From an uncultured virus (IMG/VR IMGVR_UViG_3300047576_000059) (lineage: Duplodnaviria; Heunggongvirae; Uroviricota; Caudoviricetes): 20,000 bases of DNA. Every line of letters begins with the position of its first letter. The stretch's first letter is position 1. The DNA is taken from the IMG/VR virus record IMGVR_UViG_3300047576_000059; one strand, given 5' to 3'. Under the pieces are notes generated by a model that had not been told where the DNA came from, searched no databases, and saw only the letters and a program-made list of their open reading frames with translations. Positions 239 to 19,111 of the stretch are shown here, in pieces. The position numbers and the translations under genes are program-made.

Positions 239-3200
239 TTACGGCAGCCTCGCGCCGCCTTTTCTGGTCACCTGATTGCGAACGCCTGGCGTGCCCACGG
301 ACAGATAGCCATCGTTCTTCTTATTTCTGAGGGTCTGGATATGACGGAACATCGCCAGGGTGATCTTGAGCGCGTCGCCCTTTCGGCGCATGGCCTCGGC
401 CTTGGCCAATCGTTCGGCGACCGGATTGGCCTTATACTTGAACCAATAACTGTTTTCCGAGTTGAACCAGCGCGCGAAAATCTTACTGAAGTGATAATCG
501 ACCTGACCTTTGTCTCTTCCATTTTGGTTGATCTTGCCATAGGTATCGTAGGTCACTTTCACGACATGCGGCGTAGGCATGCGGAAATGATCCAGGCTAT
601 CTGGCTTATGATCGGCCACCCAATCCTTCATCTCGTCATCCATGCTGTCATCGATGAGAGTACTAACGTCCTTGCTACCGCTTGATAACAGGACCTGCAT
701 TACTTCGTTGCTGATCTTGTGGCCATCGCGTCTGATTTCCCCCACCATCTCCAACAGCTTATCGTATTTGTGCTCAGCGAGTTCGACCAGCCATTCATCG
801 ATCTTGTAGCTTCCGATTGTCTTGAAAAATCCCTTCGGCAACATCTGACCATTAGAACTTTCCCAGCTATGCCGATGGCCAATGACACCGTTGAGGAAGA
901 TGAGCGCCATTTTCTCTGCGGAGAAATTGTCGAAGTATGTCTTGATCACCTCTGGCTTATCGTGACCAATCGTGACCAACGTTTTGATGCCAAAATCATT
1001 CAGGTGTTGGCCGAGCAAGGCTGCTCTCTGATCATCTTCGGTGTCGGTGACCAGTTCATCCAACTGACCGTTGCGGATGATTTTATTGAAGATGGCCTCT
1101 TTGCCAGCGGCTTGCGCGGCGGCTTCGTATTTCTTGTACTGGTCCGACTCAGGATCAGTTCGTGACTGGAATACCGGATTATTCCATTTGCTTCTCTTGT
1201 CCACCAGACCATAGCCTCTGATGTCACGGTTCATCAGGGCCTGAATGAGCCTCAGATCATCGTCGCTGAACAGCCGCTCGATGATCGGCTGTGGAATATT
1301 TGGCACCTCGACCAGCAGATCGGGAAATTCCTCGTACACGAAACTCAACAGTTCAACCGAGGGATTCTTGGTTTTCTTGAGCACGTAGCGGGTGGCCTCC
1401 TCGTTGTTGGCCTCCTTGAGCATGTTCATCAGCGTGTCTTTACCGGGCTTGAACCGTTTGAACGCCTTGACGGTGAAATCATTCTTGTAGCCTGATGGGA
1501 CCCGCTTGCTCGCCCAGACATTGCGCAGCGCCTCGAACACTTTCTCCTTGTCCAGCTTGCCCTTGAGGTCGCCCCAGAGATAAGTTTCCCTATGATGATA
1601 CTTGGTCGGTATGGCGGATGCCGCCATGACATCGGGAACAAGCTCTGGCGCGTTGTTGACGAGCAAACTGAAATAATCACCGCGATAAGTATTGCGGATG
1701 AGACCGACGATGTCATTGACCCGCAGCTTGTGAAGGTTCCTGACGAATTCCTCGCTGCCGCGTGGCCCTTGATCATTGTTCCTGTACGGATTGTAATCAC
1801 TCCTGTCAGTCGAACGCGCCCGCATGGCATCTTTATCGATATGACTGACCGCGACTTCGAACGCGCGACTCTTGCCGAGTTTGGTGAAGGCTTGTTGCGC
1901 GGCCACGAATTTCGGGCTCGTCGGATCAAGGTGCGCGACATCGGATGTATTGGGTTCGCGGATCACGGCTTCGACGTTCTTGAGAAAACGTTCAATCGCT
2001 TCACGCGCGTGTGCATGCTTGGCTTCGATCTGTTCCTTATCGGTCAGCTTCCTGTTGTAGTGGATTTGCTTTTTTGGCACATGAGTGGCAGTTGAGTTCT
2101 TCTTGTCCGTCACCATGCGGTAGTCTTTTTTGATCGTCGGAATGGCTTCTGGTCTCAGCGTTTCCATCACCAATGGAAAAATCTCTGGAGCGATGACCTG
2201 TACGGGTTTTAGACGGTCGCCGAAGTGTCGATTACCATCGCGGCCTGTGTTATCCTTGTCAAACAAATATTTCTGAAACTCGAAGCTTGGATTCGGTTCT
2301 TCCGCCAGGTAGAGATTGGTGAATTCATCATTATTGACCGATTCAAGCGCTCGTTCCGTGGTTGGTTGCGACAACGACGCCGGTACTTCTTTTCTGATCG
2401 CGAGGATGAGAAACATCTTCAGCGTGACATTGCTGATCGTGTCGAGCAACTCATCCACGGTGCCCGCGTCCGGTTTGGCGTAGCCGATGATGAAATCGGT
2501 GATCTTCTTGGTCTTCTCCTTGTCGGCGTAGTAGCTGCGCCCCAGACCCTCGCAGGCGCTGATCAGGTCTTCGCCGGACATCTTGTAGCCCAGCTTGATC
2601 AGGTGCCGCATGGCTTCTTCCGGCAACCAATAGAACGCTTCGCGGATCATTTGTTGGTTGAGATCACCGAAGTCGCCATTCTGCCCGACGAACAGGAAGA
2701 ACGGACCCGCCGCGCGTTGGTTTTCCGAATTGAGTTCGCGCTCGATGGCTTCCTCGCCGCCTTGCAACAGCATGTCGCTATAGATGTTCGGCATGGCCTG
2801 AGACAGCGCCGTGACGAACGCCGCGTCCTTGGGTTGCTGATGACGACCGGAGCCACTATTTGTTTCGAGGTGCTGGATGATGGCGGCGCAGACCGAGGCA
2901 TCCGGTTTGGTAATGATCAACAACGGTTTATAGAGATTGGCGGCTGTTTCTGGCATGGCCTGGAACGCCTTCACCAATTGCGCGCTGGTGAATTTGTTGC
3001 CATAGTGTTCAACAACCGGGACCGCGTGTTCTGGCATGTTGGCGAACACATATTCGATCACCTTGTCGGACAATCGGGAAGTGCCGTAGAGCGAGGTGAA
3101 CAATCCAAGCGACATATCCGCCTGGGCTTCTTCCTCATGCCAGGAGCGTCTTTGTCCGGTCCCTTCATAATTCTGAAGGAGCTTCTCGCCTTCCGCGTTG

Positions 3201-13012: not shown

Positions 13013-13485
13013 CCTTCCTTCTTGATCTGTTCCCGCAACCGTTTCAGAAGCTCGTTGCGATCCTCGACCACGATGGTATGACCATCGGTGGTGCTGGCTG
13101 CCTGCTCCGCGCCAATGACGTGATTGGTGCGTTTCTCTTCCAACACCAGTTTCAATGCCTTAAGCTGAGCGTCGCGTTTTGAATTCTTGGCGCTCATGGC
13201 GTGGCCATACATGATGGCGGCGATCTCGAAGATGCCGCGTTGACGTGGAATGTCGATGTTGTAGGCATAGGACATCAAGTCCCTGGCATGACCAACGATT
13301 TCATCATGCAGGACATCCATGGCTGCGTCGTGATCGCTGCCATCCAACATGGTGGCGCGTGATGTCAGTTCACGCACACCAGAAACGGCTTTCTCGACCT
13401 CTTCTTGTTCGACATCGACGCCTTGTTCAGCGAGAACCTCATCGAGCGGTCGCAGATTGAGGAAATCTTCCAGTCCCTTCGTCAT
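13009..13485 (-). CDS. conserved phage protein, possibly terminase small subunit-like
   Basis: ATGA overlap with the gp4-like gene; helical IFEIA...AK..K...LK and C-terminal DRNELL loosely resemble T4-like small terminases. Confidence 0.5.
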   Translation of the reverse strand: MTKGLEDFLNLRPLDEVLAEQGVDVEQEEVEKAVSGVRELTSRATMLDGSDHDAAMDVLHDEIVGHARDLMSYAYNIDIPRQRGIFEIAAIMYGHAMSAKNSKRDAQLKALKLVLEEKRTNHVIGAEQAASTTDGHTIVVEDRNELLKRLREQIKKEG

Positions 13486-13958
13486 CGTTTGTATCCGAAC
13501 AACTGGTTCTCGGTGACAAATTTGAACTGCCATCCACGTTCGACGCAGTATTTCATACCAGCGGCGAACTTCGCGGCATTGACGATTTGTTTCGCTTGCT
13601 TCACGGATGACACCTTGCCGGTGAATCCACTCAACGCCACTGGCACTTCATCCAATGGCTTGACCTCGATGACCTCGACGTGTTGCTTGCCATGCCGGTC
13701 GATGTACTGCACCCAGAAATCCGGCACGTAGATCGTCCAACTGCCAGGTCTGAGAGGATTCTGATACGGGATGCCGCTAATGCCATTGTGGACATGATTG
13801 GTTGGCAACGATTCATTCATCCAGTGTAGCACGTCAGGACCTTGATCGAAACGCATCATCACCGACCATTCCCAGGAGGATCGGGCGATGATGTTGTTGA
13901 TGTTATTGCCAAGATATTTCTTGGGATTTCTTGGTGTGAAGATGCCTTTGTCAGCCAT
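13482..13958 (-). CDS. head completion nuclease (T4 gp4-like, TnsA-type PD-(D/E)xK)
   Basis: F.PRNPKKY.G...RSSWE...IPY.NP...YVPDF...IEVKP...KF.A...YC...GW.FKFVTE. Confidence 0.9.
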   Translation of the reverse strand: MADKGIFTPRNPKKYLGNNINNIIARSSWEWSVMMRFDQGPDVLHWMNESLPTNHVHNGISGIPYQNPLRPGSWTIYVPDFWVQYIDRHGKQHVEVIEVKPLDEVPVALSGFTGKVSSVKQAKQIVNAAKFAAGMKYCVERGWQFKFVTENQLFGYKR

Positions 13959-13976: not shown

Positions 13977-15386
13977 TCAGCACCAACTGTCATCGGCGGC
14001 GGGTGTTGGCGGATTGCTGGCCTGGCTCTGTTGCTGCGCCGAGAAACCGGAACTCGGTCCTGCCGCTGGTGCCGGGTCCCATGTTCCGTTGTCAACGCTG
14101 CCAGCGTTGAACCCGATCTGCGACGTTCCGGTTTGTTGCGAATTGAAGACACCCATGGCAGCCGGGGAAAGTGAGATACCAGCCGAGGTCGAAAACGCGC
14201 CTCCACCACCGATTGCGATGCCAGCGAGTGCCGCCTTGGTGACGCCCACGGAATTGCTGAAAGCACCCATAGCCCCAGCCGTCACGGCGGCTGTGGCTTG
14301 GAACGTCGCGCCACTGACACCGAGCCCCACGCCAATCCCGCCATAAACCCCGATACCGCCGCCAATGCCCGCCGAAACGCCGATGTTGAGGGAGGCGGAT
14401 AACGCTGGATTGCCAAGCGACATGTTCGACAGATTGAGTGAGGCTCCGGCGTAGCCGCCGATGGTCAGGGGTCCGAAGGAGAAACTGCCAAACGTGCCCA
14501 ACGCTCCCAGTGAGAGTGAACCACCAAAGCGGAAGCCATACGATCCCGAATAATTCGCCGCGTAAGCACCCGAGGAATACGAGGCCAGCAGTGATTGCAC
14601 CGAGGGATTGGCGGGCAGCAGGCTGGGGATCGTCGCGAACGGCGAAATCGGAACATATCCCCCAGGGACATTCACTGGATTGCCGTTGAACGCGTAGCTG
14701 AATTCCGGGAAGATCGCGGTGGAGACCAGTTGTTGAGGAAAATACTGGATGTTCTCATAGGCGATGGTGGTGTTGATCGTGGAAATCTCGGAATTCGAGT
14801 AGTCCAGATCGTCGGCCTCCCAACCGGAGATTCTTGGGTTGCCGAGATTGTATTGATCGAAATATCCATCGTAGAAGTGAAAAATTTCCAGCCGATTGAA
14901 AAAGAACATGGCGTCGGAATATTCACTGCCCCCGTTATTGGCGGTGAATCCGAAGCCCGTTCCGGCGAAATCCTTGAAATTCGCGTAGGTCGCGTCGTAT
15001 GAATAAGAGCGATTGCTGCCGGATGGACTGGACGAATTGTTGAAGTCGCCGAAGTAGTATCTAGAATAGATCGTCCACATGTTTTGCGCGCAACCATCCG
15101 CGCTGTCATAAAATTGAAGTTTCAGTGGTTCAATTTTGAAACCGGTATGGATTTGGCGTTTCTTGTTGTACTGGTTCAGTTCTTCGAGTTTCGGATTCAC
15201 GTGCGGACGATCCACCGACTTCACGGCGAAGGTCAGGTTCCCGGTGAACACCGAAGCCAGATAGGAACCAGGCACAAACCGCACGATGAATACATTGCGT
15301 TGCCTCGGAAAGCCGCCCTGTTGTGAAAAAGTAAGGGCGGCTTGCGTCGGCGTTTGTAATGTAGGACCAGAGTAAGACCCACTCAT
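13977..15386 (-). CDS. tail-tube-fold baseplate/tube initiator protein with Gly/Ser/Ala-rich C-terminal extension
   Basis: VKSVDRP...NQYNKKR...EPLKLQFYD...NPRI...DLDYS.....I.YE parallels the gp19 fold; ATGA-coupled to the tube gene. Confidence 0.7.
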   Translation of the reverse strand: MSGSYSGPTLQTPTQAALTFSQQGGFPRQRNVFIVRFVPGSYLASVFTGNLTFAVKSVDRPHVNPKLEELNQYNKKRQIHTGFKIEPLKLQFYDSADGCAQNMWTIYSRYYFGDFNNSSSPSGSNRSYSYDATYANFKDFAGTGFGFTANNGGSEYSDAMFFFNRLEIFHFYDGYFDQYNLGNPRISGWEADDLDYSNSEISTINTTIAYENIQYFPQQLVSTAIFPEFSYAFNGNPVNVPGGYVPISPFATIPSLLPANPSVQSLLASYSSGAYAANYSGSYGFRFGGSLSLGALGTFGSFSFGPLTIGGYAGASLNLSNMSLGNPALSASLNIGVSAGIGGGIGVYGGIGVGLGVSGATFQATAAVTAGAMGAFSNSVGVTKAALAGIAIGGGGAFSTSAGISLSPAAMGVFNSQQTGTSQIGFNAGSVDNGTWDPAPAAGPSSGFSAQQQSQASNPPTPAADDSWC

Positions 15387-15959
15387 CCAATGAACGAACT
15401 TGACAGCAAGATTGGTATCGTTGGCATGAGACCACCAGACTGCGTGGCGTTGTCGAACCGAATCGACATTTCGATGGTCATCGCGTCAGCGGTTGAATAG
15501 TCGAATGTCTCATAATTGCACTCGGCCAGGAAGCAACCTTCGAATACCCATTGCTCAAGAATGGTGTCATCGCCGCCATCGAGCGTATTGATCAGCATGC
15601 CGAATTTATAATCAGCGGCGGAAGCCGGAACCGTCTGATCGAAGAAATTCATCTGCTTCTGAAGCTGAGCGCCAACCAATGACGACACGGAATTCGTGAT
15701 GTCATCACGGACGGTGAGCGAGAGCGCCTGCCATTCCGCCTTACCAGCGTAGTAAGCGATGCTGTTGTATGAATGAACCGTGACCGGATTGAAGTTGACG
15801 TTCGGGCGACCAACCGTGGTGACCTGTTGCGTCAACGCGATGGAACCCGAAGGAATGCCAAAATTGGTCACAACGACGTTGAAACGATTTTTGACCTTGG
15901 GCATGAGCATTCCACCCCTCCCACCCGGTCCCGGTACCAAAGGTACACCAAAATTTTGC
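15383..15959 (-). CDS. tail tube protein (T4 gp19-like), exon 2
   Basis: NFGVP...MLMPKVKNRF...QVTTVGRP...YNS..YYAGK..W...TVRDD...YKF...LDG...LEQW...GCFL...YS....I.M.IRFDNA. The open frame extends upstream of TTG15940 to the intron boundary. Confidence 0.9.
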
Positions 15960-16101
15960 CCTTTATTTTCAATAGAGGTCGTTAGACTCTATCCGCTTTC
16001 GCTGCTATACATTACTGTATAGAGAAGACTATATCACCATCCTTTAGTAAGGACGCTACCCGCTTCGACCCACTTGGGTCTACTCCCTTTCGGGATAGTC
16101 G

Positions 16102-16130
16102 TTGAACCTTGATTAAAGTTTTGATATATT
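16102..16130 (+). promoter_or_regulatory. sigma70-like promoter for the intron endonuclease
   Basis: TTGAAC-N17-TATATT with extended TGn; ATG follows 7 nt later with no SD. Confidence 0.55.
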
Positions 16131-16137
16131 CAAGTAA

Positions 16138-16587
16138 ATGGAACACGAAATATTTCTAGCATACGTGGCTGGCATTATGGACGGTGAGGGTTGTTTTAGG
16201 ATTGAGAAAAAACGTCCTAATGCCGCTCAAAAGTCCATCAAGTACACGATGATGATTACCCTTCAGATGGGAGAGAAGGCAGTGATGGATCACATCGCCT
16301 CTCATCTTGAGATTACCCCTCTGTTCATAAATCTACAACAGTGGAAATACAAAGATAATCAACCTCGTCGTCCAGCTTATCGGATTCAGCTTTTTTCAAA
16401 GCGTGCTGCCGATTTTATCCGCCTGATACTTCCTTATCTTGTCGGCAAGAAAGAGCAGGCGAGGTTATGCCTTGAATTCAACGATCTCATAAGCAGCCAA
16501 GTAAAACTCAAACGAAAATTCACGGAAAGTGAACTTGCTATTCGAGATGACTATTATGAGCGTGTTACATTACTTAAGCATATCTAA
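16138..16587 (+). CDS. LAGLIDADG homing endonuclease (single motif), antisense within the intron P6 region
   Basis: LAYVAGIMDGEGCF motif; ILPYLVGKKEQA C-terminal motif. Confidence 0.92.
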   Translation: MEHEIFLAYVAGIMDGEGCFRIEKKRPNAAQKSIKYTMMITLQMGEKAVMDHIASHLEITPLFINLQQWKYKDNQPRRPAYRIQLFSKRAADFIRLILPYLVGKKEQARLCLEFNDLISSQVKLKRKFTESELAIRDDYYERVTLLKHI

Positions 16588-16679
16588 TTTTAACCCTTGG
16601 CTGCTGATTGTCCTTTTCGAGGAGTTTCCAGCAATTCGAGTAGTTCTCAATAATCATTGCTGATTATTGCCCCAAATTT

Positions 16680-16690
16680 AGGGTTGTTAT
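16680..16690 (-). CDS. tail tube protein, exon 1 (ATA ACA ACC CT)
   Basis: TAAGGAG 8 nt upstream; splicing gives (M)TTLQNFGVP, 195 aa in total. Confidence 0.65.
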
Positions 16691-16738
16691 GGCACATACT
16701 CCTTAAAAAAATGTTTCGAGAGCCATTCTCGTTGCAGA

Positions 16739-16744
16739 TATTTA
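16739..16744 (-). promoter_or_regulatory. late promoter TAAATA for the tail tube operon
   Basis: Motif ~35 nt upstream of the TAAGGAG RBS. Confidence 0.7.
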
Positions 16745-16769
16745 GCTAAAAGAGTAATATACGCAGTTA

Positions 16770-17477
16770 ATGAACAATAGCTATTATGTTTACAACCTGC
16801 TGGACCCACGCTACGAACACCATCCGCCCTTTTACACCGGAAAAGGCAGCGGGAATCGGGCAAACATGCACATGCACGAATCAAAGCGAAGACATGAGAA
16901 TCCACGCAAGTATGCCAAAATTCAAAAGATTAGGGCTGCTGGTCTTGAGCCTATCATTGAATATTACGCTACTGATTTGTCAGAGGAAGATGCATACAAA
17001 TTGGAAGCCGAACTAATCATAAAATTTGGAAGAGCGGGGATTGATGAGGGAGGCATCCTTACAAATCTACTCTTGGATGGTCGCCCTCCCCTTAGGTCAG
17101 GTCCGATGTCAGATGAACAGAAAGAGGCGATCAGAAAAGGAAATTCCGGCAAGATACGCACATTAGAACAGTGTGCAGAACTTTCACGGAATAGAAAAGG
17201 AAGGCCCCGTGCGTCTCCGACCGAAGAAACCAAGGAACTCATACGTCTGGGAAACATCGCCGCCAAGGTTGACATCAGGCTATCGGATGATTTGACAGGG
17301 AGGACATTTGGCTCCTACACTGTGGCAGAAAAAAGTCGAGATGAGCGTCCCAGGATACGTGGTGCCAACGGCATATACTGGAAGTGCCTATGTTCATCAT
17401 GCGATAAGGAAAAAGAAGTTCAGCAATCACAATTGATGAAGGGAACATTCAGGATTTGTTGTCCAACCGCATCCTAA
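16770..17477 (+). CDS. free-standing GIY-YIG homing endonuclease with NUMOD3-like repeats and C-terminal Zn module
   Basis: YYVY.L.DP...PFYTGKG...R..H...E..LI...LTN; MSDEQKEAI and TEETKELI repeats; DLTGRTFG..V...WKCLC..C. Confidence 0.85.
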   Translation: MNNSYYVYNLLDPRYEHHPPFYTGKGSGNRANMHMHESKRRHENPRKYAKIQKIRAAGLEPIIEYYATDLSEEDAYKLEAELIIKFGRAGIDEGGILTNLLLDGRPPLRSGPMSDEQKEAIRKGNSGKIRTLEQCAELSRNRKGRPRASPTEETKELIRLGNIAAKVDIRLSDDLTGRTFGSYTVAEKSRDERPRIRGANGIYWKCLCSSCDKEKEVQQSQLMKGTFRICCPTAS

Positions 17478-17491
17478 CAAAGGAACTTAAC

Positions 17492-17824
17492 ATGAAACCT
17501 GTTATCAAAATACCAGCCGATGTCAGGAATGACTCTGGGCTGTCGCCGCCGGAAATCGAAGAAATGTTCAATAGCCATGATATGATCGAATTGTCATATG
17601 GCGACATCGTGATGATGACGCATAAGAGCGCACTCGCAGACGCTTTAGAATCCGTCAGCAAATACGATGCGGGCCAACTCGCACGCATCAAAGAGTCGGT
17701 GGACATCGCGCTGCGCGCAAATTTAACGAAATTGGCCAACCCTGACACCCTTGTGAAATCGGACGCGGACGACTTCTTCGGTGACTTGCTGTTGTGGGAG
17801 GCGTTGAAAGGGATGTCGTCCTGA
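17492..17824 (+). CDS. hypothetical protein
   Basis: AAGGA RBS before ATG17492. Confidence 0.65.
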   Translation: MKPVIKIPADVRNDSGLSPPEIEEMFNSHDMIELSYGDIVMMTHKSALADALESVSKYDAGQLARIKESVDIALRANLTKLANPDTLVKSDADDFFGDLLLWEALKGMSS

Positions 17825-17832
17825 GGTGGAAC

Positions 17833-19111
17833 TCACAAATCCCTGCCTCGTTTATCGACCCATCCTATGGTGGTGAAACCGATCAGATCGGATGAGTTGA
17901 CGGTTCTGAAACGCGCCTGCGCGGAGGTGTTCGTGAACACGCGAAGCACATCGGAAGAATTGATCGCTGGTGATCCAATGAGACTGAACGCGCTGACGCT
18001 GGGAACGGAATCGCCCACGGCGATAGGCGAGACATACAGGATTGGCACCTCACTACTGGAGTTTTGCAGCAGCACACTGAGAATGGCCTCGGTAACGACA
18101 TTGACCGGCGTGCTCGTCGAGAAAATTTGCGCGCTGGTCGATCCGGATGTCGTTCCAGGTGTTACGTCAACGATTGGAACATTCCAGATGAAGGTGTCAC
18201 CACTTTGATAGAACGCGAGGATTGATCCCGAACCACCCGTGGCGAATGAGCCGATGCGTCGAAACGCCGTGGTGCCAGAGGGTTTGTTGGCCGCTGTCAC
18301 CGATGTATCGAAGAAGATGTCCGCTGAACTGCTGATGATCGCGGCGAACACATGATACCATGTGCTGTCGGCAATCGCCAGGCCATTGCCCATGCCATCG
18401 TTGCCTGATCCGGCCACCCATCCGCCCGCCGTGGATTTGAACATCGCCGGAATGGTCATCATCACGCTGTTGGTGCTGTCCATGCACTGGCCAGCCGCCA
18501 CGTCGATGATGCTGGTCGGCGTGCCGACATCGTTGGACAGGGTCAGACCCGCCAGATAGCTGCGCAGGATCGTCGGACCTGTCGGCCCGGTTGGTCCGGT
18601 CACCGTTGAAGCAGCGCCTGCCGGACCCGTGGGACCGGTCACGGACGCGCCAGTGGGTCCGGTCACCGTTGAGGCGGCTCCGGTCGGCCCAGTGGGGACC
18701 GGCTGGCCCGGTTGGACCCACCGTCGCGCCGCTGGCGATCTTGTTCCAGACGGTGCCGCTGTAGATCGCGATGTCGCCGACGTTCCAGGCGAAAATGCCG
18801 TTGAGGTTGGTTGTGCCCTCGACCGAGGTCACATAGTAATTGCCCTTCGTTCCGGTACTGGACGCGAGGGTTGGTGTGTTGGTGCTGGCGTTCCATGGTC
18901 CTTGATAAACGATGCCGCCGAGCAACGAGGTCGGCACCAATGGAGTCCAGGTGCCGTTTGTGTAGATATCAAGACTTTCGTTGATGCTGTTGAACCTGAT
19001 GGCACCTTGCGATGGGGAAGGCGACAGGTAGGTTGATACCGGCAGGGACAAGGAACCCCCGAGCAGAACCAGTTCCCCTCCAGAATTTCTCGTGTCGATT
19101 ACTTTTGTCAT
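17833..19111 (-). CDS. collagen-like tail fibre protein interrupted by a +1 frameshift at ~18694-18697
   Basis: N-terminal ORF (GAIRFN...YQGPWNASTNTP..) enters GPT repeats; the repeat continues in another frame into the 17833-18666 ORF (WYHVF...FRRIGSF). Removing one C restores a 425-aa ORF. Confidence 0.75.

Follow-up and report, generated by a model that had tools for sequence, protein, structure and literature searches.

How is a homing endonuclease produced when its gene sits within a group I intron and runs antisense both to it and to the gene that it interrupts? This question is raised by a stretch of 20,000 nucleotides (nt; hereafter, the window) from an uncultured virus of the Caudoviricetes (IMG/VR record IMGVR_UViG_3300047576_000059), in which the gene of a single-motif LAGLIDADG homing endonuclease of 149 amino acids occupies positions 16138..16587 of the plus strand, in the P6 loop of a 720-nt group I intron of IA2-like build that is found on the minus strand (15960..16679) within a tail-tube gene. 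We favour, as fairly probable, an explanation in which a mobile group I intron, carrying an antisense I-CreI-type gene in P6 in a layout inherited from its ancestors, resides in the tube gene of a giant peat phage, the endonuclease being expressed from its own plus-strand transcript. Since the precursor mRNA of the tube gene cannot encode the enzyme, a separate transcript from the plus strand is required.

The intron, its host gene and the antisense endonuclease

The intron was recognized through the Rfam model RF00028, which covers 16005-16689 of the minus strand along the full model (1-253; 51.6 bits against a gathering score of 50, E 1e-10), and through alignment with intronless tube genes. 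Exon 1 (16680..16704, minus strand) comprises a Shine-Dalgarno (SD) sequence AAGGAG (16704-16699), an 8-nt spacer (tatgtgcc) and the letters ATA ACA ACC CU (16690-16680), which are followed on the minus strand by AAAUUUGGGG, forming a short P1 (16683-16670) with a U16680-G16673 wobble at the 5' splice site. Exon 2 (15383..15959, minus strand), whose first letters are ...QNFGVPLVPGPGGRGGMLMPK, codes for a tail tube protein (phrog_4542, E 2e-48 for the open reading frame, ORF, at 15383-15940) that is 47-76% identical to 16 viral-contig homologues (L001-L016). The start of the tube gene is uninterrupted in all 14 of the homologues that include it, and these intronless genes open with M[ST]TL[QS]NFGVPLGGG or a close variant. 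Joining U16680 to G15959 restores ITTLQNFGVPL, codon for codon like L004 (ATG ACC ACT TTG CAG AAT TTC), and the intron must therefore extend from 16679 to 15960, its borders falling after codon 4 of the tube gene and its last base being the omega G (G15960); an in-frame UAA is met five codons inside it. The 66.5-kb viral record that contains the window (rated 14% complete) holds one such intron and one copy of the endonuclease gene, the same intron scoring below the RF00028 cut-off there, where the search splits the record. The 10-bp palindrome that the original prediction, made from the letters of the window alone, had located at the intronless junction, CAAAATTTTG, is indeed present at 15949-15958, one base into exon 2; by reading, its two flanking halves agree at one of six positions, where a homodimer of the I-CreI type would be expected to cleave a pseudo-palindrome of ~22 bp.

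Within the ribozyme core, P2 (16669-16648) and P3 (16643-16637 with 16062-16056, P3') were read from the minus-strand sequence, P3 to P6 being assigned by eye only. Element Q (AAUCAGCAGC, 16609-16600) forms part of AAUCAGCAGCC (16599..16609, minus strand), which holds the 3' strand of P4 and the start of P6, and element R (GGUUCAACGACUA, 16096..16108, minus strand) is invariant in seven related introns. Downstream, the pairs of P7 (16100-16095 with 16032-16027) hold in all seven elements, and P7.1 (16094-16085), P7.2 (16080-16067), P8 (16053-16040) and P9 (16022-16005) are supported by covariation. Across the 3' halves of the seven introns, the 27 pairs of P7, P7.1, P7.2, P8 and P9 make up 189 cells, 98.4% of which are paired, a figure that is somewhat favoured by the structure having been drawn from the same seven sequences; 16 of the 27 show changes on both sides, and sliding the partners by 1-3 columns leaves 38-48% paired. 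G-U pairs occur among these core pairs and fit only minus-strand RNA. From the presence of P7.1 together with P7.2, our reading of the subgroup is IA2. The ORF is bracketed by an AU-rich extension of P6, the 3' strand of which (16107..16137, minus strand) pairs imperfectly with 16603-16573: each side counts 31 bases, and 14 of the 15 outermost positions are paired, two of these through G-U. The duplex has a predicted energy of -11.3 kcal/mol versus -7.5 +/- 2.5 in shuffles, 40 of 500 of which were as low; this P6 extension helix is plausible, with modest support.

The endonuclease ORF fills the P6 loop between Q and R and, like the intron itself, greatly exceeds what chance would produce. The arrangement originally predicted, an intact single-motif LAGLIDADG ORF on the plus strand in the P6 region of an intron that shares the minus strand with its host gene, was thus confirmed by the Rfam and Pfam matches. 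Pfam LAGLIDADG_1 (PF00961) is matched in one stretch over residues 11-106 (26.9 bits versus a cut-off of 23.1), phrog_5046 at 2e-22, and a TAA stands immediately 5' of the ATG. In the alignment with I-CreI and I-MsoI, which extends over residues 5-129, GIMDGEG lies opposite I-CreI GFVDGDG and LVGKKEQA opposite LKLKQKQA. GIMDGEGCF and P..L.GK..QA are invariant in seven relatives (28-67% identical), as are E17, which we take to be the catalytic acidic residue, K104 and Q107, the conserved lysine aligning with the K98 region of I-CreI. An AlphaFold2 model built on seven relatives reached a predicted local distance difference test score (pLDDT) of 85.1 and a predicted template modelling score (pTM) of 0.78, has the alpha-beta-beta-alpha-beta-beta-alpha fold, and retrieved I-MsoI, I-CreI and I-CvuI with Foldseek at template modelling (TM) scores of 0.70-0.74 (E ~1e-7) over 145-150 columns. 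These three homodimeric enzymes of algal 23S ribosomal DNA (rDNA) introns share the size, the single motif and the fold of the enzyme of the window at 14-23% identity, and the latter is an I-CreI-type single-motif enzyme that presumably acts as a homodimer. The genes of I-CreI, I-MsoI and I-CvuI are sense-oriented in organellar rRNA introns.

The guanine-plus-cytosine content is 37-43% over 16000-16800 versus 50-58% in the flanking structural genes, which is consistent with a foreign origin of the intron and its gene. Tube homologues are present on viral contigs of 578 and 608 kb and, because of these, the source of the window is probably a giant phage; the samples with matching RNA and DNA are peat and permafrost. 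A DNA search of a phage collection with 15383-17900 found no close phage, the 160 matching records all aligning over the conserved intron core (query 569-733).

Some features of the tube gene itself deserve mention. The start codon of the spliced gene appears to be ATA, placed 8 nt behind the AAGGAG of its SD; that of the homologues is ATG or, in a few cases, GTG or TTG. An ATG is found at 16697-16695, 1 nt after the SD and 7 nt upstream of the ATA, and would share the reading frame only with a 3' splice site shifted one G further on (giving MCHNNPQNF), and a second SD with an ATG (GGGAGGGGTGGA-ATG, 15912-15910) occurs 20 codons into exon 2. A separate 1006-nt metagenome contig (L021) is identical to the window over 16045-17050, ATA included.

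Inheritance of the antisense layout

A word-based protein search found few relatives of the endonuclease, one of which (P0002) is 69% identical. Loci were gathered from metagenome (20), viral (61) and genome (10) sequences, each oriented with the endonuclease gene on the plus strand, and 95 loci (19 and 71 related loci, four of cultured phages, and that of mycobacteriophage LittleE) were scanned with Rfam at E <= 0.01, leaving L017/L040 (one contig), L043 and L044 outside the scan. RF00028 matches were obtained in 18 of the 95. In L021 (the copy of the window), L022, L025, L027, L028, L048, L049, L051 and, weakly, L099, the match is on the opposite strand and overlaps the ORF; the opposite strand also carries ORF-less introns close by in L026 and L028, and a match 800 nt away in L077. 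Same-strand matches were found in L050, L108 and L112, where they abut the gene, and in L084, L059 and L103, 270-700 nt away. Two loci were not counted towards the clade described below, namely L099 (E 0.0017), for which the best BLAST match is on the other strand, and L077 (E 0.0005), for which the match lies at the distance given above.

Seven distinct elements with an antisense gene in P6 could thus be recognized: that of the window (L021), L022, L025/L026, L027, L028, L048/L049 and L051. All seven carry the R and P7.1 string GUUCAACGACUAUCCCG.AAGGGAGUA on the intron strand, and in all of them the endonuclease starts just past the R-complement and the Q-complement coincides with the stop or follows it closely; five have the stop TGA inside GCTGCTGATT and a protein that ends in ..RC. 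The host genes of the six relatives are HK97-type capsid genes, with two insertion sites 9 nt apart, ..KERNIP|PY.. (L025, L027, L028 and L048) and ..KER|NIPPY.. (L022 and L051). Exon 1 ends in AACAUCCCU at the KERNIP|PY site and in AACAACCCU in the tube gene, both of which pair with a GGGG guide, as would suit the same guide sequence directing the choice of site.

In a quick maximum-likelihood search with 83 distinct proteins, the nine rows of the clade form one side of a branch (support by the Shimodaira-Hasegawa-like approximate likelihood ratio test, SH-aLRT, of 90, as given by the quick search), with a support of 100 for the capsid subgroup, and no sense or free-standing member is found inside the clade. 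The branch of the window is long (0.86) and its placement was not starred. The antisense-in-P6 label requires one change on this tree, a number as low being reached in none of 500 label shuffles. The survey of homologous genes that the original prediction had called for thus shows the layout to be inherited, antisense in P6 in seven of seven distinct clade elements. Judged from these comparisons, the antisense layout is no one-off accident of insertion: it is ancestral to the clade, which counts at least seven elements, and these have moved among three target sites, retaining throughout a ribozyme with covariation together with an intact ORF antisense to it.

More distant members of the same protein family (28-36% identity) occur in the cultured phages StenR_269, Cyanophage PP, CcrRogue, Faust, Poludnitsa and Bacata. 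Unlike the gene of the window, these six are free-standing between genes and co-oriented with their neighbours, and no intron was found in the four loci scanned, CcrRogue and Faust (L043 and L044) being outside the scan.

Two further observations were made in the loci gathered. Capsid genes with an antisense-endonuclease intron have a second, ORF-less group I intron upstream (L028, 4074-4302, minus strand; L026, 1080-1287, minus strand), that of L028 scoring 59.5 bits and lying just before the first capsid exon. In L096, L097, L098 and L117, which share one endonuclease sequence, a weak match to YrlA (Y RNA-like; 35 bits, below the cut-off of 69) recurs downstream, ~970 nt past the point where the LAGLIDADG match ends.

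Candidate starts of the plus-strand transcript

A sigma-70-like motif, TTGAAC-N17-TGaTATATT (16102..16130, plus strand), precedes the ATG of the endonuclease and is a candidate promoter for a leaderless mRNA. The motif scan places TTGAAC at 16102-16107, followed by a 17-nt spacer, TG, and TATATT at 16125-16130, with a score of 9/12. Seven bases (16131-16137) separate TATATT from the ATG, without a purine-rich SD, and a start 7 nt after the -10 box would be A16137, one base before the AUG. As had been predicted, the -35 box TTGAAC is the reverse complement of GUUCAA in element R; the complement of the 3' strand of the P6 extension contains the spacer and the -10 box. Between 15300 and 18000, seven sites score at least 9/12 versus 3.9 +/- 1.8 in shuffles, and the TG extension is present in only two of the 24 sites with such scores in the whole window. 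An alternative -10 box in the complement of the S element (GACTATATCAY) was rejected, as its hexamers vary (TATCAT or TATCAC) and no -35 box is evident by eye. We tentatively regard the TTGAAC/TATATT motif as the best candidate for the start of the plus-strand transcript, with an mRNA that would begin at the AUG or one base before it.

Several observations weigh against this assignment. The 24 sites of at least 9/12 in the whole 20-kb window compare with 14.7 +/- 3.5 in shuffles, the -35 box is fixed by the invariant element R, and the -10 box lies inside a P6 helix strand. None of the six related DNA elements compared (P0002, with its 69% identical protein, was not among them) has a -10 box at N16-18, and three of the six have SD-like leaders. 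Moreover, giant phages may use polymerases of their own. Of the leaderless promoter originally proposed, the hexamers, the TG, the 7-nt gap and the lack of an SD stand, whereas the motif is of background-level frequency and absent from the six relatives.

The alternative is that the endonuclease is expressed from a site further upstream on the plus strand (opposite P7-P9, opposite exon 2, or a promoter specific to the phage), giving a leadered mRNA; TTGAAC/TATATT would then be a by-product of the R element and of the AU-rich P6 helix. The background-level frequency of the motif speaks for such a start, and the geometry of the relatives points in the same direction. The start codon follows TTGAAC by 6 nt in L022, 8 nt in L025, 9 nt in L027, 12 nt in L028 (where it is GTG), 21 nt in L051 and 27 nt in L048, in all six cases with no -10 box at the spacing noted above, and AGAGGA stands 3-6 nt before it in L027, L028 and L048, so that the transcripts of these three must begin elsewhere, upstream of the R-complement. 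The window alone has an interval extended to 30 nt and a TG-extended -10 box exactly 7 nt before an ATG devoid of SD, which speaks against an upstream start, and no better promoter-like site was listed on the plus strand between 15300 and 16102. Leadered mRNAs without an SD are translated poorly in most bacteria. Weighing both sides, we consider an upstream start possible for the window, if somewhat unlikely.

RNA-library contigs bear on the same question. In each of four peat RNA-library runs, a contig lying wholly inside the intron was found with no differences from the window (15965-16641, 16196-16667, 16098-16663 and 16169-16646), together with contigs of exon 2. These contigs carry no strand. 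Those that begin at 15965 and 16098 reach upstream of ~16137, as excised intron RNA would, and as a transcript with an upstream start would also do; they count against a start at the AUG. Loose ends at 15445 (exon 2) and at 16169 and 16646 (intron) resemble Illumina adapter remnants in one orientation, a weak hint, dependent on an assumed adapter sequence and protocol, that the RNA over exon 2 and the ORF is of the minus strand if the libraries were stranded with deoxyuridine triphosphate (dUTP), which would also speak against the proposed plus-strand start. No contig of the four runs crosses an intron border, covers exon 1 or joins 16680 to 15959, and uncovered parts prove nothing. Short pieces (16061-16110 and 16080-16111) were not accepted as intron RNA of the window, since they come from other introns that share the core. 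One contig of run X1 joins 16111 to 16595, a 29-nt hairpin replacing 16112-16594, with 20 nt matched on each side; it looks like a related ORF-less intron.

A more elaborate proposal would have the complement of the core doing double duty, the R-complement as -35 box or 5' leader and the Q-complement as the last codons and stop (..RC*, in five of the seven elements), with a sigma-70 promoter that, in the tube-gene member, is formed by the R element and a P6 helix strand and yields a leaderless mRNA, early synthesis driven by the host, and an antisense RNA that pairs with the late precursor mRNA of the tube gene and thereby tunes splicing or the supply of tube protein. Taken as a whole, we regard this combination as unlikely; that sigma-70 would act early and that the antisense RNA would influence splicing are both speculation. 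The intron endonucleases of T4 are reportedly made late and homing still works, so that expression 'earlier, in time for homing', as the original prediction had it, is not a needed advantage.

It could also be supposed that the endonuclease is silent or decaying, its orientation being a neutral accident of the landing of a free-standing gene and the intron persisting by splicing. Homing-endonuclease genes commonly decay after fixation (PMC13405050), no plus-strand RNA could be recognized among the strandless contigs, and the more distant homologues of cultured phages are free-standing. Against this, the ORF is intact in seven distinct elements that are only 28-40% identical and in which the motif, K104 and Q107 are invariant, the three different target sites of the clade argue for past mobility, and the gene recurs unchanged in the separate 1006-nt contig, all of which makes a silent gene very improbable. 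Also very improbable is a protein whose main role is not classical homing but that of a maturase for the folding of its own intron, or of a weapon against co-infecting phages in the way that the PhiPA3 intron endonuclease is reported to interfere with a competing phage (PMC11620839). Both E17 and the lysine opposite the I-CreI K98 region are conserved, and either role is compatible with homing.

We therefore return to the explanation of a mobile intron with an inherited antisense gene and its own plus-strand transcript. Ribosomes translating the enzyme would never travel on the ribozyme strand, and the enzyme level would be uncoupled from the very high late transcription of structural genes. 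The transcript of the window may begin at the AUG from the TTGAAC/TATATT motif, and in the relatives the start must lie further upstream. During co-infection, by analogy with the family, the enzyme would cleave tube alleles that lack the intron, close to their ...ACAACCCT|GCAAAATTTTGG junction, and repair of the cut allele would copy the intron in.

Neighbouring genes, precedents and significance

A free-standing GIY-YIG endonuclease gene (16770..17477, plus strand; Pfam PF22945) is divergent from the tube gene; this mobile element is a neighbour of the intron and lies outside it, ~65 nt upstream of the tube gene SD. A 47%-identical copy occurs at the same place and in the same orientation in an intronless giant-phage contig (L011, 2174-2740), and a fragment in L006 (2649-2810). 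The gene has no SD, and its ATG follows the end of a weak TTGCAG-N17-TAATAT by 9 nt; no RNA contig falls on 16786-17547 in the four runs, where uncovered parts prove nothing. Directly downstream of the tail-tube gene, an ORF codes for a second tube-like protein. Two overlapping minus-strand ORFs (18197-19111 and 17833-18666) both contain GPTGP collagen-like repeats, the former matching tail-protein families and then continuing into an arginine-rich tail; a single tail-fibre gene, frameshifted within the repeats, may account for the pair (17833-19111). Finally, the ORF 13482-13958 (minus strand) matches both a PHROGs head closure family (phrog_218, 1e-27) and the Pfam TnsA-like endonuclease N-terminal domain (9e-15).

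The closest precedent is found in mycobacteriophage LittleE, in which splicing of a capsid-gene intron was shown by reverse transcription PCR (Pope et al. 2013, PMC3706429). As in the window, a group I intron of a phage structural gene is accompanied by a bottom-strand ORF that has one LAGLIDADG motif; in the LittleE record this is gene 14, which lies within the split gene 13 and is antisense to it. In that locus (L045), the ribozyme core (1859-2062, plus strand) entirely precedes the ORF of gene 14 (2065-2598, minus strand), which is thus located beyond P9 and not in P6 as in the window; furthermore, the two proteins are 26% identical and belong to separate clades of the tree. The LittleE paper devotes one sentence to the gene and contains no expression analysis (PMC3706429). 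An antisense phage intron endonuclease is therefore already known from LittleE, and what is added here is a conserved clade and an ORF whose ends overlap the core on the opposite strand.

The original prediction had held antisense intron endonucleases to be best known from nuclear rDNA introns. This view needs amending in the light of the phage case of LittleE. I-DirII is encoded by an antisense gene with its own promoter in an rDNA group I intron of Didymium iridis (Edgell et al. 2011, PMC3073962). It differs from the enzyme of the window in being a nuclear His-Cys box enzyme, whose gene has a promoter for RNA polymerase II and a spliceosomal intron and whose transcript is polyadenylated. In build, a closer parallel is the td intron of phage T4, of IA2 type, in which the ORF of I-TevI is in the P6 loop and its ends overlap core helices (PMC3073962). 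The I-TevI gene, unlike that of the window, is sense-oriented and codes for a GIY-YIG enzyme, and a hairpin over the ribosome-binding site restrains its translation, which is held back because ribosome occupancy of intron sequence impairs splicing (PMC3073962). A term search for 'antisense', 'opposite' and 'orientation' in a review of bacterial group I introns (PMC3984707) and in a database paper of 2025 (PMC11835236) gave no occurrence, and in the open-access literature we found no phage case besides LittleE and no treatment of the orientation of phage intron endonucleases.

In bacteria and phages, intron endonuclease genes normally lie on the strand of the intron, which sets their translation against the folding of the ribozyme. 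A clade in which the gene is on the opposite strand, at three target sites, constitutes a natural experiment that separates translation from ribozyme folding, for which LittleE provides a cultured system for parallel comparison. The clade further enlarges the set of compact I-CreI-type enzymes, its target sites being new and located in capsid and tube genes that are conserved. If the plus-strand transcript and its start were mapped, it would become testable whether the complement of a ribozyme core serves as promoter or leader, and whether antisense pairing alters the splicing of a highly expressed late gene.

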